Below are positions 1 through 43,333 of a DNA stretch of 64,000 nucleotides, piece after piece. Position numbers and translations under genes: made by a program. Source of the DNA: Escherichia phage JLBYU24. The stretch is from sequence record OK272476.1. The stretch is one strand, 5' to 3'. The notes below the pieces were generated by a model. It did no database searches. It was not told the origin of the DNA and saw only the letters and a list, made by a program, of their open reading frames with translations. Numbering within the stretch: position 1 is the first letter of the stretch; every line of letters begins with the position of its first letter.

Positions 1-1
1 A

Positions 2-2179
2 TTAGGCCGCAAGGGCCTTCATAGTTTTAGCGATTTGGGAAACTTCATCATCGCTTAAAGAATTGCGATAACCGATGAAGTCGGAAACAATACGGAATTT
101 CTTGGTAAACTCAGCAACCATTTTATCACTATTTTTTGAAGCATTACGTGATAATTCATCAAAGAGATTAGTTACTGTCCAGATATCATGACCGATGGTA
201 TCTTTTCCACCATTAAAATATACACCGCGCAATGAACTAACTATATTAGCGAGTCGTGTATATTCTTCAGAAACTTCATCTGTACTGAAGTACTTCATCA
301 TAAAATCTAGCTCAGGATACTTGATAATTTTATCAATATATCGTTGAGCTGAACTTGAATAACCTACATACTTATCATAATCTACATCATCAAAAGCATC
401 TACATATAAATCACGCAAAGCTTCAAAAATACATTGGCACTGACCGAGTTCTTTTACCTTTTTCTGTAAAAGCGGACGAATAACATAAAATTCATTAATG
501 CCAATAAGATTAGCCATACGAATCAAAATATTCATAGATGGATGACAAAGTGATGTAGTACCATCCATAGAGAAAATATCAGAACGATGCATATATGCTA
601 CATAACCAGTAATTTCATCTGCTTCTGATGTGAGTGTAAACAGTTCCTCTTTTTCCCAGCGCCCGTCTTTAATTTCAAACTTAAACGCAGTAGCAGCTTT
701 AGGACGAGGAGCTTTACTTTTAACTGCCTTCGGAATATAACTTTTAACTAAAGCTTCAATTTCTGACAAATAATGAATGTTAACTTCATCACTTTCAAAC
801 ATTGCCATAATATCAGGGAGTAAATCAATCTGCGATTCTACTTCCGGATTAATAAACAGAAGACGCTCATTGTGATGAATATTCAAAGTGTTATTAAATT
901 CACTATCATCTAACGCATGCGCTAATCCACGGACAATATTAACACGATTTTTAATATTATCAATAACGATATTAATTTTTGTTGTATTAATACCAAACAG
1001 ACGATAACTTGATGCAACGGCTGATGTTTCATGACTTTGCTTAATGCGCTTCAGTCGAGGGTCAAGATTTACTTCATACACAACTCCTGCATTACATAAC
1101 TTACTGTCAGGTTCAAACATGCTCTGCATTTTCTTATATGACAGATTTTTAGTCGTGAATTTGACTGAATTACTAATCATATAATCTCGAGCAGAATACC
1201 CCATCTTCATCAATTCACGGTATGTGTGACGAGGAGATGTAGATTCTTTAAATCGTTTTACATCTTCATTAAATGCTTTCTCACTAAGCTCTTTAACTCG
1301 TTCAATAATATTTTTACGAGTGCGATCATCCAATGAAAGAGCTTCACGTGATGGAGCAATATCAAGTGAACCCATTGGAAATTTAATGTAATTCACTTCA
1401 TTACGAATGCTTAACCAGTTACGGTCTCTAATAACACCATCGATAGGATAAACAATACCACCATAGATAGCATATAATCCACCACGATCAGGCCAGTATC
1501 TTTCTGGATTTACACCGTAATAGTCATCAAAATCCGGAAAATAATCAATTTCGCGGTCAAGACCATTAATGATAGCCAAATCTTTGAACGGTCGCATGAT
1601 ATAAGAAACTTCATAAGCAAAGTTTCTAAAGTCTTTTTCTTCAACTGGAACTACGATTTCAATACCAGTTTTATCATCTGGACCCATTTCTTTCACGAAT
1701 GTAGGTTTAATTTGTGGACCATCGCCATCCATGTAAGCTACATAACCACGAATTTCACCTTTATGATACGAAGTAATACTAAACGTATCAGTATAACTAA
1801 ACGGAGATTTAGAACCTAAACCAAATCCGCCAATAAAGTCATTAGATTCAGCCTTAGATGAACTGAAGTATGAATTATACAGCCCAGGAGAATTATCATC
1901 ACCCTGAATATCAAAATCACTCATACCCGGACCAAAATCTCGGCAAACAAATCGTGGATCTAAACGTCCAGGAACTTGAATGATAAATTTTTCAGGATTT
2001 CCATTGAGAGCATGGGCATCAATCATGTTGGTAATCAATTCACGAACAACTGCGCGAATTTTGTTTGTATACAAATCAGATGACAGAATTTTAAATACTT
2101 TAGGATTTGCTGCGATGCTAAATGCTTTTGATTTAGAACCATTGCCAAGAATTGTTTCTTTTTCAGTGGTGATAATCAT
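2..2179 (-). CDS. rIIA: rIIA membrane-associated protein (GHKL-type ATPase-like N-terminus)
   Basis: 725-aa ORF; N-terminus and length match remembered T4 rIIA. Confidence 0.92.
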
Positions 2180-2189
2180 AATTTCCTCA

Positions 2190-2393
2190 TTAATTCATAT
2201 TACGCTTAATAACTTCAGCAACTTCTAGTAGTTCATCTTTAGTTGCAGTGTCGGATTGAATTTTATCTCTAATATCCTTAAAGCGGTTTTTAAATTCTTC
2301 GGCTTCTCCCATATCGAAAAAGCGTTGAATGATTCTATATTCTCGATGAACTGCTTTATCAAAAAGTTCTAAATTTACTCTATATGATTTCAT
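2190..2393 (-). CDS. hypothetical protein (rIIA.1 position)
   Basis: 67-aa ORF directly upstream of rIIA in the same operon. Confidence 0.55.
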
Positions 2394-2418
2394 TTCAATA
2401 TCCTCATTTGCCCAATTA

Positions 2419-2448
2419 ATTATACCACATCCTTGTGGTAAAGTAAAC
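2419..2448 (-). promoter_or_regulatory. T4-type early promoter (minus strand GTTTAC-N18-TATAAT)
   Basis: plus-strand attata 2419-2424 and gtaaac 2443-2448 with tgtgg-like extended -10. Confidence 0.55.
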
Positions 2449-4268
2449 TACTGGCTCATCCATTCTTTACGAAGGTCAGCATTATCTCCCATGAGCATTT
2501 CAAAAAGCTCTTTCCAGTTCTCAGGAAGTTTAACAACATCATATACTGGATTTTGAATCATTTCACGATATTCAGATTTTTCCAAAGAGCCAAGTCCTTT
2601 AATATAACGGATGCTATGTTTAGGTAGAGCATCTTTGGCACTCTCATATTCAGCGACTGTATAAAACCATTCTTGTTTTTTACCGACCTGAGCGATGATT
2701 ACAGGAGTTTTGACAAAGCGAATTCGTCCTTGCTCAAACAATTCTGGCCAATTACTAAAAAACCCGAGCAGAGAAGGATAAATGCTTCCTAGACCATCAT
2801 GGTCAGCATCAGTCATAATAGCAATATTATGATAATTCAAGTTTTCAGCTTTTTCACCAAGAACTAATCCAGTGATTGCGCAAATATCAAATAGTTCTTT
2901 GTTTTTAAGCATATCAGCATATGACATACCCCAACTGTTGAGAACTTTACCACGCAATGGATAACCACCATGAAGTTCTTTATCACGAACATCAATAAGA
3001 TATCCGATAGCAGAATCACCCTCAGTCAAGAAAAGAGTAGTATCAGCATCTTTACCGCACAGATTAGCTTTAATATGTTTATGAACCTTTGCCTTAGAAG
3101 CCTTTTTAGCTGCTTTAGTTTCAGCTGCTTTTTCTGCTGCCAATTTACGAGCTAGTGCAGCTTCAATAATTGGCATCAGAATTGCTTCATTATTTAGAAT
3201 AGCGCGTGAAATCTTTTTAGCGTCAAGTTGAATATGACTACGGATTTCACCAAATGGAGAAGTCAAACGCTCTTTAGTTTGAGAATCAAATCGCATGTTT
3301 TTCATATCACGGACAAACATAACGATAGTCAAACATTCTTTGACACGTGCTTTAGTTACATCAATTTTGAACTTACGTTTGATTTGTGGAATAAGGTCTT
3401 CACAAATATCATCCATAACACAGTCAATGTGATGGCCACCATTCTTAGTGTGAATGTTATTCACATAAGTTAATTGGCGAAATCCATCCGGTGAACGACC
3501 AACCGCAATAGAACAATTTTCTTGTTCTTGAACAATAGCATGTTCATCATACTGTCGTGCATATTTCTTAAAATTGCCCTGAACCTTTTTACCATTAAAG
3601 GTAAATTGAATATCAGGATAAACTACTGCAAGTGTCTGGAGACGATCCAGTGTAATGTCAAGATAAACTTGGGACAGCTCATTAGTTTCAAATGACATAA
3701 AATCTGGAATGAAAGTAACACGAGTTCCTTTCCATTTTCCAGGAATAGTTTCCCAGGATTTATTTTCCATGCCATTTGAACAACGAACTACAATATTATT
3801 TTGACCATCGCCAGTTTCACCGACAAACATCACAGAAAAAATGTTTGTCAAACTAGAACCAACACCATTCATACCACCGGTGACGCGTTCTTTATCATCA
3901 CCGAAGTTACCACCCGCTTTTGGAATAGTCCAAGCAGCAACTGGACCAGGAATTTCTTCACCAGTAGGTGTTTTAACCATCGCTTGTGGAATACCGCGAC
4001 CGTTATCTTCAACTGTTACTTGATTGTTTTTAATAGTAACATTAATTTTATTTGCGAATTTAAACTTAGTACGAATACCTTCATCTACTGAGTTATCGAT
4101 AATTTCATCAATAAGCTTAACAAGACCAGGTACATACTGAACACTTTCCCATTTACCAAACAGAAAGCGCTCATGCATTTCATTAGCAGAAGAACCAATG
4201 TACATGCCGCTACGCTTTTTGATATGTTCAATATCGCTCAGAATTTTAATTTCATTCTTAATCATCAC
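2448..4268 (-). CDS. 39: DNA topoisomerase II large subunit, continuous ORF covering T4 gp39 plus gp60-equivalent C-terminus
   Basis: 606 aa; GyrB-like ATPase motifs (IDNSVDEG); TOPRIM-like MTDADHDG segment read without interruption. Confidence 0.9.
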   Translation of the reverse strand: MMIKNEIKILSDIEHIKKRSGMYIGSSANEMHERFLFGKWESVQYVPGLVKLIDEIIDNSVDEGIRTKFKFANKINVTIKNNQVTVEDNGRGIPQAMVKTPTGEEIPGPVAAWTIPKAGGNFGDDKERVTGGMNGVGSSLTNIFSVMFVGETGDGQNNIVVRCSNGMENKSWETIPGKWKGTRVTFIPDFMSFETNELSQVYLDITLDRLQTLAVVYPDIQFTFNGKKVQGNFKKYARQYDEHAIVQEQENCSIAVGRSPDGFRQLTYVNNIHTKNGGHHIDCVMDDICEDLIPQIKRKFKIDVTKARVKECLTIVMFVRDMKNMRFDSQTKERLTSPFGEIRSHIQLDAKKISRAILNNEAILMPIIEAALARKLAAEKAAETKAAKKASKAKVHKHIKANLCGKDADTTLFLTEGDSAIGYLIDVRDKELHGGYPLRGKVLNSWGMSYADMLKNKELFDICAITGLVLGEKAENLNYHNIAIMTDADHDGLGSIYPSLLGFFSNWPELFEQGRIRFVKTPVIIAQVGKKQEWFYTVAEYESAKDALPKHSIRYIKGLGSLEKSEYREMIQNPVYDVVKLPENWKELFEMLMGDNADLRKEWMSQ

Positions 4269-4317
4269 TTATCCTCGTTTGGTTTCGGGAATATTATACT
4301 CCGGTAATCATAAAGCT

Positions 4318-4336
4318 AAAGGCCCGAAGGCCTTTT
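4318..4336 (-). terminator. stable hairpin, C(UUCG)G tetraloop on minus-strand RNA
   Basis: aaaggcc-cgaa-ggccttt inverted repeat immediately 3' of ORF 4335-4607. Confidence 0.55.
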
Positions 4337-4607
4337 ATTTAAAACGGATAGTCGAATCCTTGAAGAATAGACCAGAACATACTGTTCCTTCTACTTTCTG
4401 CCCGGTAGGTCCAATAGCACGAAATCCAGTATGTTGGAAATCATTTTCAGAGCAACCGAACCAATTATATCCAGTGATTTCAATATTAGTAAAACCGCTT
4501 GAAGACAAAATTTTGGTTGCATTATCAGCATCAGTACATCCTACTAAAGATACTGCTAATACTAATGCTGCGATAGAACGATTAACATATTTCATAATTT
4601 CACTCAA
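4335..4607 (-). CDS. putative lipoprotein
   Basis: 90 aa; N-terminal signal peptide with LVGC lipobox-like motif. Confidence 0.5.
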   Translation of the reverse strand: MSEIMKYVNRSIAALVLAVSLVGCTDADNATKILSSSGFTNIEITGYNWFGCSENDFQHTGFRAIGPTGQKVEGTVCSGLFFKDSTIRFK

Positions 4608-4977
4608 ATTTAATGGCTTGAAGAAGACTAATAATTCTCAAGCGACTTCTTTCATCTTTAACTGTAAAAGAAAGAGGGTCACCAGATTTCATAGTGATGG
4701 TGCATCCAAAATCAAAATCTTCTGTAACTTCTTCGAAGAAGTCAAATTCTTCATCATAAATTAGAACATTACTCTGAAAGCTGTGAAGAATTTTTCCATC
4801 ATTTCCAGATGCTGTACTAATCATTGTAACATTATGACCTTTCATATCTTCAACGATAAATTCGCTTGTAGATATTACAGCATTAATAGAACCATTCCTA
4901 TAAATAGCAGACATTAGATATTTCTTTTCTTCGCCTTCGCGAATACGATATTTCTTACCGATTTTAAACATAATCAC
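4600..4977 (-). CDS. hypothetical protein
   Basis: 125-aa ORF; track start is GTG at 4975-4977, likely ATG start at 4969-4971. Confidence 0.45.
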   Translation of the reverse strand: MIMFKIGKKYRIREGEEKKYLMSAIYRNGSINAVISTSEFIVEDMKGHNVTMISTASGNDGKILHSFQSNVLIYDEEFDFFEEVTEDFDFGCTITMKSGDPLSFTVKDERSRLRIISLLQAIKFE

Positions 4978-5150
4978 CCTTTAAGTAAATCGTAAAAACC
5001 ACCATTCACATGCTTAGGAGCAGAAGGCCGACGAGTAGACAAACGATGACATTTAGGGCAAACATCATTTTCTCGTTCAGAAATCTTTTTAATTTTTTCA
5101 TATTCATGCCCGCAATCTTCGGATTGGCATTTATAATCATACATTGGCAT
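4974..5150 (-). CDS. small zinc-ribbon protein (CxxC-x17-CxxC)
   Basis: 58-aa ORF below ORF-track cutoff; AAGGAA RBS 6 nt upstream of ATG; MPMYDYKCQSEDCGH...CPKCH. Confidence 0.45.
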   Translation of the reverse strand: MPMYDYKCQSEDCGHEYEKIKKISERENDVCPKCHRLSTRRPSAPKHVNGGFYDLLKG

Positions 5151-5152
5151 AA

Positions 5153-5578
5153 TTATTCCTTAAAATGAGCTTTCAGCATCTGATACAAGGACCATGCCTG
5201 TTCATTATTTTCAATAGTAACTTTCATGACAGGAAATTCTGTGAAATCTTCTATTTGTTCTTGCTCTTGCTCTTCCTGCTCTTGCTCTTCAGCTGCCTGA
5301 TATGGATTTTCCACTTCATCAAAGAACTCGGCTTCGTTAGTAGAGAGCCAGATAAAGTTTTCGTCAAGGATATCACCATGTGTTGCATATCCAATTGTGC
5401 CAGTAAATGACATAATTTTAGTAGGACGACCAAGATGGTCAACATCTAAAATTTTAAAAGGATGCATACCTAAACGGCGTGCATAGATTCCGTTATCAGT
5501 ATGATCTTTAATAAAATTTTCTTGAGCTTGTTTATTTTTAAATTGATACCATTTATTAACTTCAAATCTAATAGCCAT
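5153..5578 (-). CDS. hypothetical acidic protein with EQ-repeat tract (size and position match T4 goF)
   Basis: 141 aa; [14 protein letters not shown] low-complexity segment; assignment positional only. Confidence 0.45.
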
Positions 5579-5793
5579 TAATAAATTTCCTTCCAGTAAG
5601 TTGTACCGTCTTCAGTGATTTCACGGAATACACCATAAATCGGTTGTTTATCACCAACCTTTTCATACACATAAACCGAAGTCAAGTGAGTAAACTTGAT
5701 GGTGTGTTCCTTTTGAACCACTACCAAATCTGGGTCAAATAATACATCTTCAAATTCGTCATTAGTGCAATTCTGAACAATTTTACGTTTCAT
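5578..5793 (-). CDS. hypothetical protein (size and position match T4 cef)
   Basis: 71-aa ORF, start/stop adjacent to neighbours. Confidence 0.4.
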
Positions 5794-6183: not shown

Positions 6184-6603
6184 TTATGCTAAAGCTGCTT
6201 CGCACCATTTTTTAATTTGGAATTCAGGAACTACCATGAACTGGCCTGCAAAAACAATATTGTAGAGCTTGACACCATCTTCTACCCAACGGTCCGAAAT
6301 AAAACCAGCGACTTGATTCGTTGTCCATGGAGTTCCATCTGTTGCCGCCGCAATTGTGAATTTATGGTCTTTTACAACTAAAACTGAAGAACAAAGTTTC
6401 CATTTAAATGCGCTTTCTTCTGGCTCAATGAACTGACTTGAGACATAACCAATGTTACCATCAGCGTCACGAACTTTAACCTCGTTACGACCAAAAACTG
6501 GATCACTTACAGAAAGAACTTCAACCAGCTTTCCTGCAACTTTAGAACGAGAAGCAACGGATACATATACGTAATCACCAGTAGAGAGATTTACAATATT
6601 CAT
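6184..6603 (-). CDS. MotB-family paralog
   Basis: shares N-terminal SASRSK(V/A)AG(K/R)LVEV and C-terminal WVEDGxKLYNIVF motif with ORF 6613-7131. Confidence 0.5.
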   Translation of the reverse strand: MNIVNLSTGDYVYVSVASRSKVAGKLVEVLSVSDPVFGRNEVKVRDADGNIGYVSSQFIEPEESAFKWKLCSSVLVVKDHKFTIAAATDGTPWTTNQVAGFISDRWVEDGVKLYNIVFAGQFMVVPEFQIKKWCEAALA

Positions 6604-6612
6604 AATAATTCC

Positions 6613-7131
6613 TTAAGCTTTACGAGGAGAAGCATAACGAGTGATTTCAGATTCTTCAACAACCCGGAAGTCACCTAAAAATACAATATTGTATAGCTTT
6701 TTACCGTCTTCAACCCATTGGTCTGTGATGAAGCCACACATCCTATCAGTTTTACTTGGACCAGCGAAATCATCAATATAATCGAATTCTTCATCAGTTA
6801 CAAATTCAACGCCTTTACACAACGCCCATTTAAATTGTGTATTAGACTCAGTGGATTCAACTTCTTCAACAGAAGCAAAATGAGAGCTAACACGAGTTTC
6901 CAGAAATTTAGGACTTACGTAAGCGTACTGAGTTTCAGTTTTTCCAGAACTAGGAATGATTCGAACTTTAACTTCTTTAACACGACCAGTACCATTAGTA
7001 CGAAGTCCTACCACTTCAACTAGACGACCTGCAGCTTTAGAACGAGATGCAGACGATACACGCTTAATTTCACCGATAGTAATCATAATTTTTCTCTCTT
7101 TGTTGTTAAGATTTATACTCCGCAGGACCAT
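6613..7131 (-). CDS. motB: MotB-like DNA-binding protein
   Basis: position after cef-like ORF; probable true start MITIGEIK at ~7086 giving ~157 aa. Confidence 0.5.
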   Translation of the reverse strand: MVLRSINLNNKERKIMITIGEIKRVSSASRSKAAGRLVEVVGLRTNGTGRVKEVKVRIIPSSGKTETQYAYVSPKFLETRVSSHFASVEEVESTESNTQFKWALCKGVEFVTDEEFDYIDDFAGPSKTDRMCGFITDQWVEDGKKLYNIVFLGDFRVVEESEITRYASPRKA

Positions 7132-7159
7132 TATACTCTGGTCCCAAGAGTTTGTAAAC
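7130..7159 (-). promoter_or_regulatory. T4-type early promoter
   Basis: plus attata 7130-7135, gtaaac 7154-7159, 18-nt spacer. Confidence 0.5.
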
Positions 7160-7596
7160 TAGCTTACACGAACATTAATCACTGCGCTGCGAGGAACTAC
7201 AGAGTACTCTCCAGCATGAACTACGTTCAGAAGTTCAACACCATCTTCAATCCACTGATCAGTCACCCATCCACCCACAGGATTCGCGAATGGACGACGA
7301 ATATAAACTGCCTTACACAGCAGATCAGTTGGATCTTCAGGTTTTTCAATTTCTGTCAATAGACTAAAATCTTTTTCATAAATAATAAGCGGTGATACCA
7401 TTCCATAATAGTTTCTAATTTCAATATACATCATACCGATAAGAATTCCGCTATTAACACTAATAACAGTAAAAGGATATCCGCCAGTTAAACCAAGAAG
7501 TTCACAAAACTTATTATGAGCTGTATTAGACAGTACCGAAAAATTCTTAATTTCATCAAATTTTTTCAATTGATAAACAGCATTATTTTTAATCAT
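7159..7596 (-). CDS. MotB-family C-terminal-domain paralog
   Basis: C-terminal GGWVTDQWIEDGVELLNVVHAGEYSVVP matches motif of the two neighbouring ORFs. Confidence 0.45.
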   Translation of the reverse strand: MIKNNAVYQLKKFDEIKNFSVLSNTAHNKFCELLGLTGGYPFTVISVNSGILIGMMYIEIRNYYGMVSPLIIYEKDFSLLTEIEKPEDPTDLLCKAVYIRRPFANPVGGWVTDQWIEDGVELLNVVHAGEYSVVPRSAVINVRVS

Positions 7597-29575: not shown

Positions 29576-30550
29576 TCACTTCCACTGCATTTCGCATGCC
29601 AATTGAATGAAAAGATATGCTAAATGTAATTCCGTATTAGCCGCAATTCCGTGATACTGGTTATTTTCACCAACAATTTCATACATACGAATAATACTTT
29701 GTGGAGTTACGCGTGTATAGATTTCTTCGGCAAGTTTACCAACGAACCACGAATAATCAGCCGCATATTTTGGTGCTAAAGCTCTGAGTTGTTTAACATC
29801 TTTATTTTTGAGAGACTCAAGAACATCATCAATAGCACCACGATCGTTAGTAACCAGTGATAAAATACCAGCATCCAAAACACCTTTAGACGAATAACTA
29901 TCGAGCTCGCCAATAGTTTTACGAAAATCAGGAAAATTCTTTTTAACCAAAGCTGCTACAACTTTCATATCAGCTATAGCAATTCCTTCATGCTTGCAGA
30001 TTTCAGTCAATCGACGAATCATCTGCTTCATCATTTCAATTTTATCTTCATCGGTCGGTTGACCGAATGTAATAACTCGGCAGCGTGACTGAAGCGGTTT
30101 AATAATACCATCAATATTGTTAGCAGTAATAATAATACTACAGTTTGAACTATAAGCTTCCATAAAGGAACGAAGATGTCGCTGAGACTCTGCTAGCCCT
30201 GAGCGGTCAAATTCATCAATAACAATTACTTTTTGACGACCATCAAATGAAGCTGCACTAGCAAAATTAGTCAAAGGACCGCGAACGAAATCAATTTTAC
30301 AATCTGACCCATTCACAAACATCATATCAGCATTTACATCATGACACAATGCTTTCGCTACGGTTGTTTTACCTGTTCCTGGAGAAGGAGAATGAAGAAT
30401 AATATGTGGAATTTTACCTTTACTTGTAATAGATTTAAAGGTTTCTTTATCAAAGGCGGGAAGAATACATTCATCGATAGTAGATGGACGATATTTCTGT
30501 TCAAGAATGTGTTCTTTTTCATTTACAGTAATCATAATTTCCTCATTCAA
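29576..30550 (-). CDS. 44: clamp loader large subunit gp44 (AAA+)
   Basis: Walker [11 protein letters not shown]; Walker B VIVIDEFD; ~319-324 aa. Confidence 0.93.
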
Positions 30551-30569
30551 GTTTTAGTGTAAATTATAA

Positions 30570-30583
30570 AGGGCCGAAGCCCT
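30570..30583 (-). terminator. UUCG-loop hairpin 3' of gene 45
   Basis: agggc-cgaa-gccct. Confidence 0.5.
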
Positions 30584-30586
30584 CTA

Positions 30587-31273
30587 TTAAAAATCGTGGG
30601 TAGAATCAGCTTCAAGAGCTACTACATAATTCGCGTGTTCACCTTCAAATTTAGCAGCACCCTGTTTACCTTTTGCCCAAAGCAGAAGTTTGTAATTTCC
30701 TGGTTGCATTTTCATATTTGCCATATTGATAATGAAATTAAATGTATTTTCACCATCATAATCACCAAGAGTCAAAGAATATTTAACGCGGGTCAAAGCA
30801 GAATCTTCTACTTTATTAAAACCGTTAATTACGATTTTACCTTCTTTTACTGTGATAGCAATTGTATCAATCTGCAGACCACGAGATACACGCAACAGTT
30901 GTTGAAGGTCTTCAGCTTTAATTTCGGTAACAACAGATGCTACCGGGAATGGAATTGGTTTATTAGGAGCAACTACTGTACTCGGATCAGCTGCTGGCCA
31001 AAAAATTGTTGAACGGGCATCAGCAATTTTAATATTTCCATCTTCTGACTGGGAAATTTCTGCATCGTCATTAACTAGAGACAGAATACCGAGAAAACCG
31101 TTCAAATCGTAAATCGCTACATCAAAATCAATAGTGTCAGAAATATTTGCTTCTGCATAAGTTGTACCATTAACCGCGCGAGTCATAATAAATTGACCGG
31201 ATTTAAGCATAATACCAGAGTTAATAGTAGCGAAATTTTTGAGCAGAGCAGTGGTATCTTTAGACAGTTTCAT
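30587..31273 (-). CDS. 45: sliding clamp gp45
   Basis: 228 aa; size and position. Confidence 0.92.
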   Translation of the reverse strand: MKLSKDTTALLKNFATINSGIMLKSGQFIMTRAVNGTTYAEANISDTIDFDVAIYDLNGFLGILSLVNDDAEISQSEDGNIKIADARSTIFWPAADPSTVVAPNKPIPFPVASVVTEIKAEDLQQLLRVSRGLQIDTIAITVKEGKIVINGFNKVEDSALTRVKYSLTLGDYDGENTFNFIINMANMKMQPGNYKLLLWAKGKQGAAKFEGEHANYVVALEADSTHDF

Positions 31274-31328
31274 GTAATTTCCTTCAATTCAAATGAGATT
31301 TAATTTTATAACTAATTTAATAAAGCAA

Positions 31329-31718
31329 TTAACGATTAAAATCAGCAGCAATTGTTTCCGCAACAATTTGAGCAGCGACAATTAGGCGTTCATCTGCATT
31401 ACCGCAATAATCATCTTCAAGGCGTTCACCGCATGAAGTCATAATAAATTTAGCACCAGCATTTAGAGATTCTGCCGTATGTTTGCGCATTAGTTCAATC
31501 CATTTATCACTCACTTCACGATCAATAGCTTCATAATACGCATGACGAGCAGGTGCAGATTTAATTTTGTTCTGAATAACTTCCATTGCGTTATCAGAAA
31601 GAGACAAAACCCATGCTCGACGAATTTTATTTTGGTTTTGTGGATTTGAATCAGAACGCACGTGTTTTGGCTGAATATCTTTTACATCAACAGTATAATT
31701 CACAGTAATTTTAGTCAT
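31329..31718 (-). CDS. rpbA: RNA polymerase-binding protein RpbA
   Basis: 129 aa; size and position. Confidence 0.7.
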
Positions 31719-31727
31719 AATACACCT

Positions 31728-31916
31728 TTAGTCATAATAATCAGTAACAGTCCAAGCTTCATTTCTGTTGGACATTATTTTCGTATATTCTGATTTAAAT
31801 GCATTCTTAAGCATAGATTCAGTAACTATATGCTCTTCATTAGAAAAATTATTTCTCAGAATATATCGTTTTATTTCAGGAATAGTTAATAGATGCTGTC
31901 CAGTTGAATATTCCAT
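31728..31916 (-). CDS. hypothetical protein (45.2 position)
   Basis: 62-aa ORF. Confidence 0.45.
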   Translation of the reverse strand: MEYSTGQHLLTIPEIKRYILRNNFSNEEHIVTESMLKNAFKSEYTKIMSNRNEAWTVTDYYD

Positions 31917-31971
31917 GTTTTTCCTCCATAGAGATTATACTCTAATAAATTAAAGCATAATCTCTAATAAA

Positions 31972-33654
31972 TTAAACCATTATAGTAAACCGACCAACTT
32001 TCTTCATTTGAAGATGCTGACCATATGCTTGTGGGTCATGGTCTCTATGCGAAATAACAAAAACATTAGTATTTTTTAAACTATCTAAAATAGTTGAAAT
32101 AGCTTTTACACCTTCAACATCAGTTGCTGAATCAAAAACTTCATCGAGAATTAGTGTGTTTATTTTAACACCTGAAACTTTTTCAGCAATATCACGCCAA
32201 GTAAATAAAAGAGCAATATCAATTCGTGCTTTTTCACCTTGACTAAATGAAGCATAACTAAAATCTTCACGACCACGGGATTTAATTGTCTCATTAAATT
32301 CTTCATCTAATGTAAACACATAATCCGCTTCCATTATTTTAAGATAATGGTTAATTTGCTTATTAAATAATGGAATGTACTTTTTAATAATAGCACCTTT
32401 AATACCAGAATCTTTGAGCATATCAGTCAAAATTCCTCGGTGGTATTTTTCCATTACTAAATTAGTTTTTGTCTTAACAATTTTATCAAGTTCTTCTTGA
32501 AGCAGTGCTATTTCATCAGCATGGTCAATAAACTCAGAAGATGCTTTTTCTATAGCTGCTTTAACTTTTTTAGCTTTATCTACCGTCGTGATTAGAGATT
32601 GCTTTTTATTGCGAATATCATTTGCCAACGACTGCTGGGTTTTAATATTATCTCGGTATTCATCAACAAGAACTTTTAAATTATCACGGTGCGTTGAAAG
32701 CTGTTCAAATGAATGCGTACATTCAGAAACTTTATCTTTAATTTTAGAAACAACTTTATCGCCGGAACTTAATTGTGACAAACAGGTTGGACATAATCCA
32801 CCTTCGTGATACATATTAATGACTTTATTATACGAGTCAATTTTTGATTTAATTAAAACTGCTTCTTGACCGATTTTATTAAATGCATCAGTCGGGTCTT
32901 CATCCAAAACAATATTAACTAATCTTTCATTAGCTTCTTCTATTTCCGATTTTAGCGTTCTAGCTTCTTTTGCCAAATCATCATACATATTTTGTAGACG
33001 AGTAAGGTTGTCACCCGTTAATTTTTTCTGGCGTTCAACGTTATCATTATATATTTTAATTTGTTGGATAATACTATCTTTTTTAACATCAAGCACTTGG
33101 TTTTGTGAATTTAATTCACGTATTAGTGCTTTATTAAGCTTATCCATTTCAGCTAATGTTCCTACCTCAAGCAGGTCTTCCACAAGCTTTCTTCGCGCAG
33201 GGGTCGACAAACCCATGAAAGGGGTATACCCTGCTGTACCAAGGACAACAATCTGCTTGAAACTGGCATATGACATTCCGATAAGCTGTTCAAATTCTGC
33301 TTGGAAATCTTTACTGCTGGCAGATTCATTAAGACGTGTACCGTTAACGGTGATTTCGAAAACGTTTGGTTTTTGTCCTCTTTTGATATAGTACTTTTTC
33401 TCATCATATTCCATCCACAGTTCAACTAAAAGTTCTTTCTTATTTGTGCTGTTTATTAATTGACCTTTCTTTACATCACGAAATGGCTTGCCAAAAAGCC
33501 CAAACGTGATGGCTTCTAACATAGTAGACTTACCACCGCCATTTCGTCCAGTAATAAGAGTTTTTTGAACCTTATCTAATTGAATGTCAATAGGATTTCC
33601 ACCTACTGACATTATATTTTGATACCTAACTCGGTTTAGTTTAAAATTCTTCAC
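31972..33654 (-). CDS. 46: recombination endonuclease subunit gp46 (Rad50/SbcC-like)
   Basis: 560 aa; Walker A GRNGGGKST; central coiled coil; CPTC zinc hook; Walker B LILDEVFD. Confidence 0.92.
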   Translation of the reverse strand: MKNFKLNRVRYQNIMSVGGNPIDIQLDKVQKTLITGRNGGGKSTMLEAITFGLFGKPFRDVKKGQLINSTNKKELLVELWMEYDEKKYYIKRGQKPNVFEITVNGTRLNESASSKDFQAEFEQLIGMSYASFKQIVVLGTAGYTPFMGLSTPARRKLVEDLLEVGTLAEMDKLNKALIRELNSQNQVLDVKKDSIIQQIKIYNDNVERQKKLTGDNLTRLQNMYDDLAKEARTLKSEIEEANERLVNIVLDEDPTDAFNKIGQEAVLIKSKIDSYNKVINMYHEGGLCPTCLSQLSSGDKVVSKIKDKVSECTHSFEQLSTHRDNLKVLVDEYRDNIKTQQSLANDIRNKKQSLITTVDKAKKVKAAIEKASSEFIDHADEIALLQEELDKIVKTKTNLVMEKYHRGILTDMLKDSGIKGAIIKKYIPLFNKQINHYLKIMEADYVFTLDEEFNETIKSRGREDFSYASFSQGEKARIDIALLFTWRDIAEKVSGVKINTLILDEVFDSATDVEGVKAISTILDSLKNTNVFVISHRDHDPQAYGQHLQMKKVGRFTIMV

Positions 33655-33914
33655 AAAAGATTCCTTTTAATGTATCTTTTAGACCATTCTATCATATCAT
33701 CATAATCTAAAAAGTATTCATCAAATTCAGCCACGCAAACAACACCTTGTGTTGTTTTTGATGTAATATAAATTATTCCAACATATCTAGAATCTTCTTC
33801 GGTATAATCAATATTTGCTATGAATTCATCATTAATGTCAAATGTCGAAAACTTCACAGTATGCATCCTTAATACAAGATACAGCCATATCTCGCAATGA
33901 TTTAGGTGTGTCAT
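33651..33914 (-). CDS. hypothetical protein (46.1 position)
   Basis: 87-aa ORF. Confidence 0.45.
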   Translation of the reverse strand: MTHLNHCEIWLYLVLRMHTVKFSTFDINDEFIANIDYTEEDSRYVGIIYITSKTTQGVVCVAEFDEYFLDYDDMIEWSKRYIKRNLL

Positions 33915-34101
33915 TATCTAAAATGTTGAAGTTAAAAGATACAGCCCAGTCAGTGCAGACTGTAACCTTTTTAATACAATTATCTTCAACCTCTAGCGGT
34001 TCAAACCAATATTCAATAATTTCTTTATGACCAATATCATCTTTTACTTCGCATTCAAAATGCTGACTCATCATAACATTTTTAAATTCATCAAAAGTCA
34101 T
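33838..34101 (-). CDS. hypothetical protein (46.2 position)
   Basis: 87-aa ORF. Confidence 0.45.
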   Translation of the reverse strand: MTFDEFKNVMMSQHFECEVKDDIGHKEIIEYWFEPLEVEDNCIKKVTVCTDWAVSFNFNILDNDTPKSLRDMAVSCIKDAYCEVFDI

Positions 34102-35117
34102 TGTGTTGCCTCTACATATAACTGATTTGCATATTGAATAAGTGCTTCACGATCAGAATCAGTGATGTCTGGAATTGCATTAATGTATTCTTCCATCAAC
34201 GTCTGAAGAGATTGAACTTCAACTTCTTCACTGTCATCTGACTCGACAGAGTTATCAATCTTTGACACAACTCGTAATGAATGCACAACTTTTTCTAGTT
34301 CAGATTCGAACTTCGTCAGATTTTTGTCTACTTCAGTTACTATAACACGTACTGATAGATTTGTAAAATCTTTATAGTCAATTTTTCCTTTAAATGGATA
34401 ATGAATTCTACGGTGCCAGGTAGTATTGTTTGGAATAAATTCCATTCGTTCTGTTTCTGTATCAAACATCCAGAATCCACGAGGGTCATTCTCGTCACCT
34501 GCAGTTAGTGTCCATGGTGTCCCAATATATCTGACGTTAGCAGCCTCAGAGATAGTATGGAAGTGACCAGACCACACCTCTTTATAAGTCTTAAGGAAAT
34601 CAGGTTCAAGACCGTGAGATTTCATTCCTTTATAAAAATAAAATCCATTCAGCTCCCAGTGACCAACACAAAAAGAAGCAGATGAAGTTTTGATGTGTTC
34701 AAGAATTTCACCAGTATTTTCTTCGCACATCCAAGGAATCAAATCAATCAAACACCCGTCAAAATCTACTGTAGTAGGCTTATCATATACTTTAACATTA
34801 GGATATTTAGCCAAAAGCTCAGTAGAGGCATTTGGAGTTAAAGTATTTTTAAAGTGCATATCATGGTTTCCTACAACAGTATGTAGGGTAATACCAGCAT
34901 CATCAAGCATTTGAACTATTTCACGAGCGAACTCCATAGTTTTATGTGTGATTGCTTTTCGCACATCAAAAATATCGCCGTATTGAATCCATGTAGTAAT
35001 TCCATTTTTCTTAGAATATTCTATTGCTTGTTTAATTCCATCCAACTGAATAGATTGAACCCACTCATCATCGGCTTTAACGCCTAAATGCCAATCACCT
35101 AAATTTAAAATTTTCAT
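34098..35117 (-). CDS. 47: recombination endonuclease subunit gp47 (Mre11/SbcD-like)
   Basis: 339 aa; phosphoesterase motifs GDWH, GNHD, GHWE. Confidence 0.92.
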   Translation of the reverse strand: MKILNLGDWHLGVKADDEWVQSIQLDGIKQAIEYSKKNGITTWIQYGDIFDVRKAITHKTMEFAREIVQMLDDAGITLHTVVGNHDMHFKNTLTPNASTELLAKYPNVKVYDKPTTVDFDGCLIDLIPWMCEENTGEILEHIKTSSASFCVGHWELNGFYFYKGMKSHGLEPDFLKTYKEVWSGHFHTISEAANVRYIGTPWTLTAGDENDPRGFWMFDTETERMEFIPNNTTWHRRIHYPFKGKIDYKDFTNLSVRVIVTEVDKNLTKFESELEKVVHSLRVVSKIDNSVESDDSEEVEVQSLQTLMEEYINAIPDITDSDREALIQYANQLYVEATQ

Positions 35118-35119
35118 AT

Positions 35120-35260
35120 ATCAAGAACCGTCATTGAAATGCAAAATAAAATTATTGAAATAAATCCATCTGGAGTGCTAAAGAAACCAATCCAGCATGC
35201 TCTAGTGAATAGATAAAATGCAAGAAAAAGTATCACATATCCAAGAAATATCATTATATC
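35120..35260 (-). CDS. small hydrophobic peptide
   Basis: ~46-aa ORF below track cutoff; stop overlaps gp47 ATG. Confidence 0.35.
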
Positions 35261-35277
35261 AAACTCCGTATAAAGCT

Positions 35278-35295
35278 AAAGGGCCGAAGCCCTTT
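35278..35295 (-). terminator. UUCG-loop hairpin at 3' end of alpha-gt
   Basis: aaagggc-cgaa-gcccttt overlapping the stop codon. Confidence 0.5.
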
Positions 35296-36496
35296 ATTTT
35301 GTAATAATGTCAAACTGTTCTTTAAAGCAGAAGCTTGAATCTTGATGCTGATACAAAAATTCATATGCTTTTTCTCGCTCACGGTCATAAAGAGCTCGGT
35401 CAGATGACAGTTCTTTAATATGTTCAAATGTTGATTCCATGTCATTTTCATCAAACCAAATGATACCGCTATCATGCGAGGTCAAAGGATTATTATCAAC
35501 ACGGAATTTTAAATTTTCGCCAGTAGATTTCCAAAATACCGGAATTGTTCCACATGCACCAAGCTCGAGATGAGTATATTCTAAAGAACGTTGTAGATAT
35601 TTTTTATCCAACTTACTCAACTGATAACCAAAACCGGATTTACTCATGCGTTCAAGCATTTCGCTATTTACATAACGGTCAAGAATTTGCGTTGGCAAAT
35701 TAGGAGCAATTTTAATTTGGTCTACTTGATGAAGACGATAATACTCGTATGGAATTCCTTTTTCTTTAATAGGAATAAACGCTGGAGAACGTTCCAGACC
35801 TTCCATAATAGTACTTAGTCCTGCAGGTTTAAGATGTTTTTCATGAAAATCAAACATCTGATAAAAACCTTTCCATGTAGTAGTACGACCAATCCAACGG
35901 TTGATATTCATGTTAATTTCAGAAACATCTTTCCAGTAGGTTGATCGAACCTTCGCAATATCCATCGGAGGCTGAAAGTTATATACTGTCGGCGCTTCTT
36001 CAATATCATCAAACAGAGAAACTGTTTCAGGATACCACTCTTTCATCAGAACTTTATTAAAATCACCATTATCAGAATGGCTAAAAATAACATCAGCTCG
36101 ACGAACAGTTTCTTCTAATCCCAAATTTCGACGCAAAGAAAGAGAAGAATGGTCATGTTGATAAACTACAATACGAACAGAAGGTTTAATGTTATCAATA
36201 ATTTTTTTATAGTTATTAATCGTGTCTTCTTCAACCGAAGTAGCAGGAACCGAATTGATAATTAGAATATCACAATCATTTACCAGCTTAAGTGTTTTAT
36301 CATATTCTTTTGCCAATAAAACCGGAATTGAAAATGATTTATAATCATGCGCGCAATTACGAGTAAATGATTTATCTTTAGCATAAACCAAAGTTACTTC
36401 ATGACCATTTTTAATAAACCAATCACGTTGCTCGAGTGAGAATTTTGTTACACCACAACCTTCAAGACCTCGAGCCATAAAAATACATACTTTCAT
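35294..36496 (-). CDS. a-gt: DNA alpha-glucosyltransferase
   Basis: 400 aa; size and position match T4 alpha-gt. Confidence 0.88.
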   Translation of the reverse strand: MKVCIFMARGLEGCGVTKFSLEQRDWFIKNGHEVTLVYAKDKSFTRNCAHDYKSFSIPVLLAKEYDKTLKLVNDCDILIINSVPATSVEEDTINNYKKIIDNIKPSVRIVVYQHDHSSLSLRRNLGLEETVRRADVIFSHSDNGDFNKVLMKEWYPETVSLFDDIEEAPTVYNFQPPMDIAKVRSTYWKDVSEINMNINRWIGRTTTWKGFYQMFDFHEKHLKPAGLSTIMEGLERSPAFIPIKEKGIPYEYYRLHQVDQIKIAPNLPTQILDRYVNSEMLERMSKSGFGYQLSKLDKKYLQRSLEYTHLELGACGTIPVFWKSTGENLKFRVDNNPLTSHDSGIIWFDENDMESTFEHIKELSSDRALYDREREKAYEFLYQHQDSSFCFKEQFDIITK

Positions 36497-36546
36497 TTAA
36501 TATCCTCTTTGTTTTGGTTTATTTTACCAAAAATTTATAAAGCAAT

Positions 36547-36566
36547 ATAGGAGCCGAAGCTCCTAT
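36547..36566 (-). terminator. UUCG-loop hairpin
   Basis: ataggagc-cgaa-gctcctat. Confidence 0.5.
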
Positions 36567-36737
36567 CCGCATAATACGCCATACAGAGGCTCGTTAGAAC
36601 TTTTAAATTTTATGCGCTTATATTTTATAGTTCCTTCTGCTTTAGCTTTATCATGAGACTCTTTAAAGCGTCTCATCATTTCCTCTTTAGAGGAACGAAT
36701 TTTATTATAATCTATTTCAGAAGTCTGGATGTTCATC
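36564..36737 (-). CDS. hypothetical small protein
   Basis: 57-aa ORF below track cutoff; stop lies in hairpin. Confidence 0.3.
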
Positions 36738-36739
36738 TT

Positions 36740-36946
36740 TCATAACTGCCACCATTTTTTGACTTGATAAGAATCAACCCACACTTTCATATTAGGGTCT
36801 GCTCTTACAATAGGAGGATTAACTTCTTTAATTGAACTATCATGGTATTCTTTTTCAGAAATTTTCACACAAAGATGACCATTCAAAGATTCAGTAAATC
36901 CTGCATTAATTTTAAGACGCTTGAATTTTACGTGTGTAAGCATCAA
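36740..36946 (-). CDS. hypothetical protein
   Basis: 68-aa ORF. Confidence 0.4.
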   Translation of the reverse strand: MMLTHVKFKRLKINAGFTESLNGHLCVKISEKEYHDSSIKEVNPPIVRADPNMKVWVDSYQVKKWWQL

Positions 36947-37229
36947 TCATATCCTCAATTTGCGATCTAGTAGTCTTCCAAAGAATACTGATGAGTTCAT
37001 CGTTATATGGCTGTTTTAGAATATCCCGACTTTTCTTGATAGCATATTCGTATTGAGCAAAATTATTGTTTTCAGCTGCGATCTGAGCGTGCTTATAAAG
37101 ACGATTCAGTTCGCGTTTGTTTTTAGACAATAACTTATTTGCTTTTCTTTCTGCTTCAAGACGGTTCTTTTCTTCAATAGAAGAAATAAGCTTTTCCACT
37201 TCATCATTAATTTCGGGTTTATCAGTCAT
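36912..37229 (-). CDS. hypothetical protein
   Basis: 105-aa ORF, predicted coiled coil. Confidence 0.4.
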   Translation of the reverse strand: MTDKPEINDEVEKLISSIEEKNRLEAERKANKLLSKNKRELNRLYKHAQIAAENNNFAQYEYAIKKSRDILKQPYNDELISILWKTTRSQIEDMIDAYTRKIQAS

Positions 37230-37230
37230 A

Positions 37231-37449
37231 TTATTTCTCTAATATAAAATAAAAATCATCATCTGTTAAATGATACCTGTAATTTAATTCTACACCATTA
37301 GATTTAAAAGCGGTATCATACGGATTTTCTGGATCAATATCAATGTCAAGAGCTAAAACTTCCCTGAGATACATTTTAAGCAAATAGGGAATAGCTTCAA
37401 CTTCAGGTATTTCTTCCAAGAATCCGGAGAGGTTAATCGTTAGCCTCAT
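37231..37449 (-). CDS. hypothetical protein
   Basis: 72-aa ORF. Confidence 0.4.
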
Positions 37450-37990
37450 ATAAAAAATCCAAACTAGGAGAATCGTCTACAACACTTTTCTTTTCAGCCC
37501 CCGGTGTTCTATAGGTTGATTCTTCGTAATGCGTCATTTTATCGTAGATGTCTTGAATAAAAGTTTCATCTACTAACGCAACCATATCGTCGTCACGACT
37601 GTCATAGACATTGTGAACGAAGTAACTATATTTCTTTGCAACTTCCTTACGTTCTTTTTTAATACGCTGGACGAATGCATTAAAACAAGCTTGAGTTATA
37701 TACGCATGTGGGTTTTTATATTTCGTTTCATCAAAATTGTGAAGCCCCTTAATAGAAGCTTCTATACCATCTGCAATCATTTCTTGTTTCCAAGACTGGG
37801 TGTATCCTGAAAAGTTGAAACGTTTAGATAAGCCTTCTGCAATAAGCATAATGGCTAATCCAATAGTATCATTTTGACGAACTACTTTATTTGGGTCTTT
37901 ATTATTTGCTAATTCTGTTTTCCAATCAATAATAGCTTGTAAAAGCTCTTTATTGTTTACGTAATTATATTTAGGCTTAGTTTCTGACAT
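37433..37990 (-). CDS. 55: late-transcription sigma factor gp55
   Basis: 185 aa from [23 protein letters not shown]; matches remembered T4 gp55. Confidence 0.9.
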
Positions 37991-38068
37991 TTTCACCTCT
38001 TAGCTCAATTCATAGATCTATTATATCATAATATTTGAAGATCTATCTTAAAGCATAGAGGATATCAG

Positions 38069-38338
38069 TTATCTAAGTAAGCAGTATGCTTGGAACACTT
38101 TTTCCATCATCTTTTTAAATTCATGAATATCTATATAATGACTAGTTAAATCAGCATGATATAAAAAGTCTAAAAACTTTTCATGTGTGCTAGCATATTC
38201 GCTTTCATTTAATTCAGAAACATGGCTTTCCCAATATCCAACACCAGTCTTATTTGGGAAAAATGAAATTTTCATGTATTGGTCAACATAGAAAATTCCA
38301 TAATTTTCAATAGTAATAGAAATATTAATAAATTTCAT
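38069..38338 (-). CDS. hypothetical protein
   Basis: 89-aa ORF. Confidence 0.4.
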   Translation of the reverse strand: MKFINISITIENYGIFYVDQYMKISFFPNKTGVGYWESHVSELNESEYASTHEKFLDFLYHADLTSHYIDIHEFKKMMEKVFQAYCLLR

Positions 38339-38550
38339 ACATTCATCAACTTAGCCGCTTCGAGAGCTGCATCTAGTGAATCAAATTGGTCGACGTATTC
38401 AATCAATTCGCCGTAATTAGCGTATAACCACCATTGGCTAAATTCATACTCAAGGATGAATCCATTTCCTTCAATTTGAGTTAAACCAATGCCATTTGTA
38501 TTTACTTCATATCCGGCAAGACGCAAATCGTTAATAAGAGCTTCGTTCAT
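38335..38550 (-). CDS. hypothetical protein
   Basis: 71-aa ORF. Confidence 0.4.
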   Translation of the reverse strand: MNEALINDLRLAGYEVNTNGIGLTQIEGNGFILEYEFSQWWLYANYGELIEYVDQFDSLDAALEAAKLMNV

Positions 38551-38552
38551 AA

Positions 38553-38879
38553 TTATACCTTAGTAATTTTCAGGTCAGCAAATTTTTTCTTGCGTTGATT
38601 TTTCATACGACGAATAGTTTTATCGGAAATTTCATGTTTTTGATAAGCTTTAGATTCTACGCCAAAAGCTTTAACATCAAATTCTGACAAGATATATTGA
38701 ACCAACAATTCGCGGATAGTGTTGCGTCCAATCTTCTGATCATTCTGTTTCATCGTCTGATGAAGCTCTTTTTCCCATTTATCCAAACTTTGAGGAGTTA
38801 CAATATCGCCTTTTTCTAGCAAAGAAACTACTTTATCATATGCATAAGAATTGATGGCGTTTTTAATTTGAATAGTCAT
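38553..38879 (-). CDS. hypothetical protein
   Basis: 108-aa ORF. Confidence 0.4.
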   Translation of the reverse strand: MTIQIKNAINSYAYDKVVSLLEKGDIVTPQSLDKWEKELHQTMKQNDQKIGRNTIRELLVQYILSEFDVKAFGVESKAYQKHEISDKTIRRMKNQRKKKFADLKITKV

Positions 38880-38917
38880 ACATTATCCTCAATTGCGTTA
38901 AAATTTTATTATCCAAA

Positions 38918-38933
38918 AAGGGCCGAAGCCCTT
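38918..38933 (-). terminator. UUCG-loop hairpin
   Basis: aagggc-cgaa-gccctt. Confidence 0.5.
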
Positions 38934-39132
38934 AGCTAAACTGTTTGGCACCCTTCCAGCCTTCGTACATCATTGCGGCTGATATTAATATTGCTCCTGA
39001 GCATTTTGAATATTTGTGATTCCAAAACCAGTTTAGAAAAACTTCGTCATCAATACCTTGGGCTATCATATTTTCAAAGAACTGACGACGAGCTTCAGCA
39101 ATTCGTTGCGATAATTTAGATTCAGGATTCAT
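38932..39132 (-). CDS. hypothetical protein
   Basis: 66-aa ORF. Confidence 0.4.
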   Translation of the reverse strand: MNPESKLSQRIAEARRQFFENMIAQGIDDEVFLNWFWNHKYSKCSGAILISAAMMYEGWKGAKQFS

Positions 39133-39264
39133 TTAAATTTTCCAGTTACCATTTTCATCAATAAATTTAATCCAGTCATTTACTGACCACTTAGTTGTAT
39201 CGCCTTTTGGAGTAACATTTAAAGTGTATAACCCCTGCTTAAAAAGCATTCGTTTGATATTCAT
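39133..39264 (-). CDS. hypothetical small protein
   Basis: ATG at 39262-39264 with GAGGAAAAT RBS; track ORF 39133-39348 is an upstream extension. Confidence 0.35.
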   Translation of the reverse strand: MNIKRMLFKQGLYTLNVTPKGDTTKWSVNDWIKFIDENGNWKI

Positions 39265-39271
39265 ATTTTCC

Positions 39272-39610
39272 TCAGCTGTAACGATAACACTCGTTTGATT
39301 TGCGCTTAGCAACTCGTTGAGATGTATTGTAATCAAAATCATCGTCAATGTAAACTGATTTTTTCAACTTTCTTACTTCACCACGTAATTGACGATTTAG
39401 CTCATCTTTAACTTCTGAATCAATGCCTTTCATTCTACGCCATTTATCAGAGCGAAAAATGTTTTCAACCATATCTTTATGACTTACACCATCAGGAGCT
39501 TTACGCTTTCCGAAATAGTCATAATCACGAACTTTTAAGTCTTTACGACGATACGTTTTACCCATGGAGTTTGATTTCCTTAGCAACTGAACTAAATACA
39601 GCACGGTCAC
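39272..39610 (-). CDS. hypothetical basic protein
   Basis: 112-aa ORF; true start may be the internal Met (MGKTYRRK). Confidence 0.4.
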   Translation of the reverse strand: MTVLYLVQLLRKSNSMGKTYRRKDLKVRDYDYFGKRKAPDGVSHKDMVENIFRSDKWRRMKGIDSEVKDELNRQLRGEVRKLKKSVYIDDDFDYNTSQRVAKRKSNECYRYS

Positions 39611-39740
39611 AAATCATCTGTTTATGTAACTTGAGTATAAGATAATAAACTTCAAAACCGTTTACATAAGTAACACGAACAACATTACCATTAATAAAAT
39701 AATATTGTCCCTTTTTAATTTCTTTATCAACCACAACCAT
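39558..39740 (-). CDS. hypothetical protein
   Basis: 60-aa ORF; promoter upstream. Confidence 0.4.
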   Translation of the reverse strand: MVVVDKEIKKGQYYFINGNVVRVTYVNGFEVYYLILKLHKQMICDRAVFSSVAKEIKLHG

Positions 39741-39770
39741 ATCAAATCCTCAAAGGCAATTCATATGTTA

Positions 39771-39800
39771 ATAATACCACGGTTTGAACTTGTTGTAAAC
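39771..39800 (-). promoter_or_regulatory. T4-type early promoter
   Basis: minus strand GTTTAC-N18-TATTAT with tgtgg-like extension. Confidence 0.5.
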
Positions 39801-39881
39801 AACTTTGTGAAAATTATTTTAGGGAATGATAAGAAGGGAACGATAGCTTAGAATGGTAATATACAGAATGTAAGAAAGAAA

Positions 39882-39895
39882 GGCCCAGAGGGCCC
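39882..39895 (-). terminator. hairpin 3' of nrdH
   Basis: ggccc-agag-gggcc. Confidence 0.45.
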
Positions 39896-39898
39896 GTC

Positions 39899-40207: not shown

Positions 40208-40209
40208 AA

Positions 40210-43292: not shown

Positions 43293-43333
43293 AATAAACC
43301 CTTACCTTAAATAGATAAGGGTATTTATTATTT

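Follow-up and report, generated by a model that had tools for sequence, protein, structure and literature searches.

The window, a 64,000-nt stretch of DNA from Escherichia phage JLBYU24 (OK272476.1), opens with rIIA (2..2179) and rIIA.1 (2190..2393; Pfam T4_RIIA1). These are followed by a single open frame on the minus strand (2448..4268), to which the ORF listing gives 606 amino acids (aa) from a GTG codon, and by a homologue of 39.1 (4335..4607). T4-like genomes conventionally begin with the order rIIA / rIIA.1 / gene 39 / 39.1. The translation of the frame, which includes ...NIAIMTDADHDGLGSIYPSLLGFFSNWPELF..., has no stop or frameshift, and it is likewise continuous through the stretch ...NLNYHNIAIMTDADHDGLGSIYPSLLGFFSNWPELF... 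of the gene 39 region. A frame of this length is no chance feature: with 34.5% G+C and a stop probability of 0.066 per codon, the window should contain ~1e-13 open frames of 606 codons, and across 20 shuffles the open frames reached at most 147 codons. An earlier note on this DNA had reported one uninterrupted ORF at exactly these coordinates; we add the strand, on which it was silent. Elsewhere in the window, a 605-aa ORF matched Pfam NrdD, and the other ORFs of at least 380 aa are presumably dda, 41, uvsX, 43, 46, and a-gt, judging by length and T4 map order. A scan of 2100..5200 for promoter and terminator consensus sequences returned sites no more numerous than in shuffles, and an Rfam scan of the whole 64-kb window returned nothing at gathering scores.

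The mechanical start of the ORF, an in-frame GTG (4266..4268, minus strand), lies one codon 5' of an ATG (4263..4265, minus strand) that follows it directly. Upstream of both, a Shine-Dalgarno sequence, GAGGA (4272..4276, minus strand), can be read in the mRNA (...AAACGAGGAUAAGUGAUGAUUAAG...), in which the 5' end of gene 39 runs AAACGAGGAUAA-GUG-AUG-AUU-AAG. The spacing from GAGGA is 6 nt to the ATG and only 3 nt to the GTG. In the T2 and T6 records, the coding sequence is annotated from an ATG at the equivalent position and encodes 605 aa. Translation of gene 39 almost certainly begins with the ATG at 4265, and the GTG at 4266..4268 is probably unused as a start. From the Shine-Dalgarno spacing and the annotation of T2 and T6, it follows that the product has 605 aa. 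The gene for this DNA topoisomerase II large subunit occupies 2448..4265 on the minus strand, with its TAG stop at 2448..2450, and agrees in length with T2 and T6 and with the PDB chain 8ylu_C. The 606 codons given in the earlier note therefore stand as a single read-through frame but not as the size of the product, which is 605 aa from the ATG (606 codons counting the TAG).

Three Pfam models matched the protein above their gathering scores, all on the minus strand (residues in the numbering of the 606-aa frame). The first is the GHKL ATPase domain (HATPase_c; aa 48-150, 3819..4127; E = 1.9e-9; 38.4 bits versus a cut-off of 26.4), and the motifs EIIDNSVDE, DNGRGIP, and GGMNGVGSS can be read in its translation. 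It is followed by the transducer domain (DNA_gyraseB; aa 251-385, 3114..3518; E = 1.5e-13; 51.1 bits versus a cut-off of 27), with its "QTK" loop within SQTKERL. The third is the TOPRIM-associated C-terminal domain (TOPRIM_C; aa 520-605, 2454..2711; E = 4.2e-7; 30.7 bits versus a cut-off of 29), a region that is the counterpart of the body of T4 gp60 by alignment. The core Toprim model of Pfam had no match in the gene 39 protein at E ≤ 0.001, and we assigned TOPRIM from the TOPRIM_C match, sequence motifs, and alignment with proteins of solved structure. Among these motifs are the catalytic glutamate, E415 in LTEGDSA (codon at 3021..3023, minus strand), which aligned with EGDSA of human TOP2A, and the metal-binding DxDxD, made up of D486, D488, and D490 in MTDADHDG (2796..2810, minus strand), which aligned with the TOPRIM domains of TOP2A and T6. 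The catalytic glutamate and DxDxD are thus both on one chain of the gene 39 product.

Against the PDB, the protein is identical to T6 gp39 (8ylu chain C) at 604 of 605 residues, with Q526H as the sole difference. Human TOP2A and TOP2B matched nearly the whole protein (residues 10-603, E ~1e-59), as did Topo IV ParE, and gyrase B matched residues 5-534. Although sequence identity is low, the cellular type IIA enzymes (GyrB, ParE, and the N-terminal half of eukaryotic Topo II) have in common with the phage protein the order GHKL-transducer-TOPRIM and the motifs EGDSA and (I)MTDxDxDG. Judged by its predicted domains and motifs, the gene 39 product is a complete ATPase/TOPRIM subunit of a type IIA topoisomerase, of the GyrB/ParE/gp39 type. 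In T-even phages, replication is supported by an ATP-dependent, DNA-relaxing type IIA enzyme made up of two copies each of gp39 and gp52. By analogy with the solved T6 enzyme, the gene 39 product and gp52 would assemble into an A2B2 type IIA topoisomerase that depends on ATP. Gene 52 itself we take to lie outside the window, since in the T4 map order it comes past rIIB, at the opposite end of the linearized genome. It is established that the phage topoisomerase relaxes DNA without supercoiling it, and ATP-dependent relaxation activity has been demonstrated for T6 gp39 with gp52 (PMC11461880). The enzyme has two subunits in T2 and T6 (gp39 and gp52) and three in T4 (PMC11461880).

We compared gene 39 base by base with its counterparts in T2 and T6. 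The gene is 1818 nt long in all three phages, and the comparison showed substitutions only, with no indels. The T6 gene (MH550421 2447..4264; YP_010067157 / AXN58044) differs at 62 nt, mostly synonymous, and at 1 aa (96.6% nt identity), and T6 gp39 has the single 605-aa polypeptide, the start, the stop, and the position between rIIA.1 and 39.1 in common with the gene described here. The T2 gene (AP018813 2447..4264) differs at 61 nt and 2 aa (96.6% nt identity). The earlier note had called the arrangement "T2/T6-like," and these gapless alignments bear that description out. It had also allowed for a frameshift or insertion that it might have missed; base by base, there was none against gene 39 of T2, T6, or phage TH09.

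The annotation of T4 (NC_000866) places gene 39 at 3778..5328 and gene 60 at join(2458..2802, 2853..2990), with a 50-nt bypass region at 2803..2852, 60.1 at 2971..3351, and mobA at 3654..3767 (mobA/60.1 region, 2971..3767). The division of the T4 protein into gene 39 and gene 60, with a 50-nt bypass and mobA, which the earlier note had described, is thereby confirmed. Using blastp, we recovered both T4 halves without gaps inside the one window frame: residues 2-474 (606-aa numbering) correspond to T4 gp39 1-473 (98.3%), and residues 473-606 (606-aa numbering) correspond to T4 gp60 27-160 (95.5%). Nothing in the window corresponds to the C-terminal 43 residues of T4 gp39 (FEEKEDGEW...RKNL) or to the N-terminal ~30 of gp60 (MKFVKIDSS...). 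Around the gap, the T4 sequence is GAT GGA [TAGCCTTCGGGCTATCTATAGAAATACCTCATAATTAAGAGATTATTGGA] TTA GGT TCT ATT, and the window has GAT GGT CTA GGA AGC ATT at this site. The codons GGT CTA (G491 L492; 2790..2795, minus strand) hold the junction 2793|2792, which is the point of GGA + 50-nt gap + TTA in T4; here the site has no stop codon, hairpin, or second (matched) GGA.

T4 therefore has the same enzyme and the same neighbors (rIIA, rIIA.1, and 39.1), but it makes the subunit as two polypeptides. It also has ~70 additional residues that project from TOPRIM, a gene for an HNH endonuclease, and a coding gap, terminated by UAG, that ribosomes cross by hopping from a GGA take-off codon to a GGA landing codon. 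None of these features is present in the window. As a result of the T4 split, gp39 contains the catalytic glutamate and gp60 the aspartate triad, and roughly half of the ribosomes have to make the hop. Translation of gene 39 in JLBYU24 needs no recoding. When aligned with the T4 gp39-gp60 fusion 8yo3, the protein gave two matching blocks, between which the fusion has 69 extra residues (474-542) that the window lacks. The ~70-aa insertion in the T4 TOPRIM domain has been described as sitting outside the domain, with little effect on activity (PMC11461880).

To delimit the element that divides the gene in T4-type phages, we compared the gene with HY01 and resequenced T4 without gaps, working inward from either end. 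Homology stops after ORF nt 1418 (window 2848) and restarts at nt 1483 (window 2783). Between these points lies a parental segment of 64 nt (ORF nt 1419..1482; 2784..2847, minus strand), which runs from the third base of the A473 codon to S494, has DxDxD inside, and is 100% identical to T2. Under global pairwise DNA alignment with cheap gap extension, the same 64 nt were scattered into spurious 5- to 8-nt matches within the T4 insert. The element that replaces them in T4-type phages measures 1106 nt, or 1117 nt in the old T4 reference (2794..3910). In T4 this ~1.1-kb element consists of a C-terminal extension, mobA, an N-terminal extension, homR, the 50-nt gap, and 9 nt. The mobA gene of HY01 and resequenced T4 is a 272-codon frame with a sub-threshold match to Pfam HNH (20.1 bits versus a cut-off of 21.4; E = 7e-4). 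HY01 homR (element nt 1001-1046) is 76% identical to window 2794..2839, and the 9 nt after the gap read TTAGGTTCT versus CTAGGAAGC. The alignment with human TOP2A passes straight over the MobA site, with only a short loop difference.

A detailed anatomy of the element has been published. According to Manning & Atkins (2022, bioRxiv 10.1101/2022.08.31.505936), the MobA element is 1097-1106 nt long, is inserted at Topo2L nt 1399-1419, and deletes 55-75 nt (64 nt in HY01, clade 1). It contributes an extension of ~44 aa to the C terminus of ORF1 and one of ~45 aa to the N terminus of ORF2, and it includes homR, a diverged copy of the deleted segment (67-81% identical), and after it the 50-nt bypass cassette; clade 1 elements have a further 9 nt, and the end of the element lies just after G491 (bioRxiv 10.1101/2022.08.31.505936). 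The boundaries that we obtained (nt 1418/1419, 64 nt, 9 nt, and G491 in the 605-aa numbering) and the 76% identity to homR match this anatomy exactly.

A tblastn search of the entire 64 kb with HY01 MobA and both extensions gave a best match of only E = 0.67, while blastn of the whole HY01 element against the 64 kb returned only the similarity of homR to the parental segment, and the bypass gap sequence had no similarity anywhere in the 64-kb window. The window is thus without the T4-type ~1.1-kb insertion, MobA, or the bypass cassette. We are highly confident that the locus represents the uninterrupted, "parental" version of gene 39 from a T4-like phage (Tequatrovirus), coding for one 605-aa GHKL-transducer-TOPRIM polypeptide, with the MobA cassette absent. 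Such a gene either would never have been invaded by the cassette or would no longer carry it. Because the cassette is absent, the topoisomerase II should be of the two-subunit (gp39 + gp52) T2/T6 type, made without recoding. The uninterrupted form, being common to the cellular enzymes, is the ancestral arrangement.

A megablast search with window 2000..4800 matched 535 phage records, nearly all of them Tequatrovirus-type, from phages of Escherichia, Shigella, Yersinia, Salmonella, and Citrobacter. One match spanned at least 80% of the query in 493 of the 535, a figure that may include cassette-bearing records (with two aligned pieces joined) and so is not a count of uninterrupted alleles. The T4 insert (T4 2794..3910) was found in 43 phage records, versus the 535 that match the gene 39 region; its carriers include T4 isolates, RB55, RB59, HY01, HY03, vB_EcoM_112, and G50. 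The uninterrupted gene 39 is the majority state, and the split of T4 is the exception. While the state itself was rightly named in the earlier note, it is therefore not specific to T2 and T6, since it is the majority condition among Tequatrovirus records. The unsplit state of gene 39 is already well known.

The best record for window 2000..4800 was Escherichia phage TH09 (MT446387, an unannotated sewage isolate), with 99.8% identity. Its gene 39 differs at 1 of 1818 nt and at 0 aa. Over window 30001..55000, TH09 is just 97.9% identical and is thus a different phage, and none of the records reaches 99% identity at 30-55 kb of the window. The genomes of TH09 and the source phage are mosaic. By its sequence, the source phage is a Tequatrovirus other than T4, T2, or T6.

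An uninterrupted gene could also have been restored secondarily. In such a "hit and run," an ancestor would have had the MobA cassette, which was then either excised precisely or removed through recombination with a phage that lacked it. A restoration history has been described for a clade of Aeromonas phages, and progressive loss of the element has been noted (Manning & Atkins, bioRxiv 10.1101/2022.08.31.505936). Among Tequatroviruses, exchange between the two states is plausible, because cassette-bearing and cassette-free phages are about equally near the window; the insert-bearing G50, for example, shows 96.8% identity across 30-55 kb. However, documented hit-and-run ORFs retain the C- and N-terminal extensions, and neither was found here. 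The gene is also without an indel relative to T2 and T6, it aligns across the site with cellular type IIA enzymes, and its 64-nt segment is parental (100% identical to T2), unlike homR (76%). We consider restoration at this locus very improbable. Cassette loss by homologous replacement would be traceless and would leave an identical present-day allele.

It is scarcely credible that the continuous gene is an artefact of sequencing or assembly, in which the insert or gap of a real split T4-like gene was collapsed. Legacy errors exist in the same region of the T4 reference record, but nothing specific points to an error here. The same arrangement was found base by base in T2, T6, and TH09, the last with a difference of 1 nt in 1818, and 493 independent records each have a single match over at least 80% of the region. 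Moreover, the junction is in frame and encodes a universally conserved TOPRIM motif, and the collapse of a unique 1.1-kb insert would not recreate the exact 64-mer of T2.

That the window comes from T4, or from a T4 derivative engineered to fuse genes 39 and 60, has next to no probability. A gp39-gp60 fusion has been constructed for structural work (PMC11461880), but that fusion keeps the ~70-aa TOPRIM insertion (69 residues in 8yo3), which the window lacks. Both flanks have diverged from T4: window 1..2783 is 97.1% identical to T4 11..2793, and window 2848..4597 is 95.6% identical to T4 3911..5661, with extra and missing segments in the flank comparison, such as window 4598..4968. The site itself is T2-type, with a 64-nt segment that matches T2, unlike the diverged homR of T4. 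The 3-4% divergence, the flank indels, the T2-type site, and the missing 69 residues refute a T4 origin or an engineered T4 fusion, in agreement with the earlier statement that the DNA is not T4 itself.

Gene 39 in its uninterrupted, parental form is of value mainly for annotation and typing, as it marks the phage as a Tequatrovirus other than T4, without the MobA/bypass cassette. It makes no open question newly testable beyond what T2 or T6 already allow. It does resolve the empty 64-nt MobA site (2784..2847) to the base, consistent with published work.

As cited in bioRxiv 10.1101/2022.08.31.505936, Bonocora et al. (2011) found MobA from relatives of T4 to be active: it nicks T2 gene 39 in the parental segment and, in mixed infection, moves the split and the gap into T2, after which the gap shields the invaded gene from re-cutting. 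The nick is placed ~20 nt upstream of the point of gap insertion in the same preprint (bioRxiv 10.1101/2022.08.31.505936), and the corresponding position here would be approximately window 2813. Identity to T2 is 100% across ORF nt 1400..1502 (103 nt), which covers both the nick site and the gap-insertion point. Because this 103-nt stretch does not differ from the demonstrated target in T2, the phage is a predicted MobA-cleavable recipient, and its gene 39 site is probably a live target for MobA homing. In a mixed infection, a mobA+ phage would be expected to convert this gene 39 allele. The allele could instead be refractory to MobA, or have been secondarily restored by recombination after loss of the cassette. 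We regard this as very improbable because of the 103-nt identity to T2 and the lack of any cassette remnant; if true, it would bear on the low frequency of MobA (43/535 matching records) despite efficient homing.

Comparison of the older T4 reference (NC_000866) with the resequenced T4 genome (MT984581) revealed differences in two genes of the topoisomerase region. In gene 39, which encodes the topoisomerase II large subunit, NC_000866 carries a compensating -1/+1 indel pair relative to MT984581 at approximately positions 4346 to 4353 of the record. As a result, the QTK loop reads MRLIRQTKE in NC_000866, while the conserved MRFDSQTKE is found in the window, in phage HY01, which carries a T4-type insert, and in MT984581. 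In the homing endonuclease gene mobA (approximately 3450 to 3667), NC_000866 contains 11 additional single bases, mostly G, which break the gene into "mobA" (37 amino acids [aa]) and "60.1." Both MT984581 and HY01, by comparison, have an open mobA frame of 272 codons. The indel pair and the additional bases look like legacy sequencing errors, and the "defective mobA" label of the T4 reference may therefore be in part an artifact.

Within the window, nrdD, the anaerobic ribonucleotide reductase gene (41005..42822, minus strand; Pfam NRDD, E = 1.8e-171), is a single uninterrupted 605-aa open reading frame (ORF). The T4 nrdD gene (sunY) contains a group I intron. An Rfam scan of the whole 64 kb returned no families at gathering score, and thus no group I intron was detected. 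Besides gene 39, nrdD would be a second "empty" site in JLBYU24, at which a mobile element is missing. Furthermore, a tblastn search with HY01 MobA against positions 1 to 64000 recovered no significant relative of the HNH "Mob" type (best E = 0.67), suggesting that MobA-like homing endonucleases are few in the part of the genome covered by the window.

The window is a mosaic. Escherichia phage TH09 (MT446387) is 99.8% identical to it around gene 39 (2000..4800) but only 97.9% identical over 30001..55000, where all records in the phage collection fall short of 99% identity. For these reasons, JLBYU24 as such appears not to be represented in the collection.

Approximately 50 nt upstream of gene 39 and directly 3' of the stop codon of the 39.1 homolog, there is a GGCC-UUCG-GGCC tetraloop hairpin (4318..4335, minus strand), which was not called by a simple terminator scan. 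Its C(UUCG)G motif, which is highly stable, also forms the top of the take-off stem-loop of T4 gene 60. A 125-aa ORF (4600..4977, minus strand) located between the homologs of 39.1 and 39.2 had no match in a Pfam search. T4 lacks this ORF (segment 4598..4968 of the window), whereas T6 has it, annotated as similar to RB69ORF005c.

Over the first 9 kb of the window, divergence from T4 is greatest (78 to 84% identical or unaligned) at a stretch of three adjacent minus-strand ORFs in the motB region (6184..7596). These ORFs, of 139 aa (6184..6603), 172 aa (6613..7131), and 145 aa (7159..7596), have a C-terminal motif in common, roughly D(R/Q)W(V/I)EDG..L(Y/L)N(I/V)V...G.(F/Y).VVP, which suggests that they are tandem paralogs.
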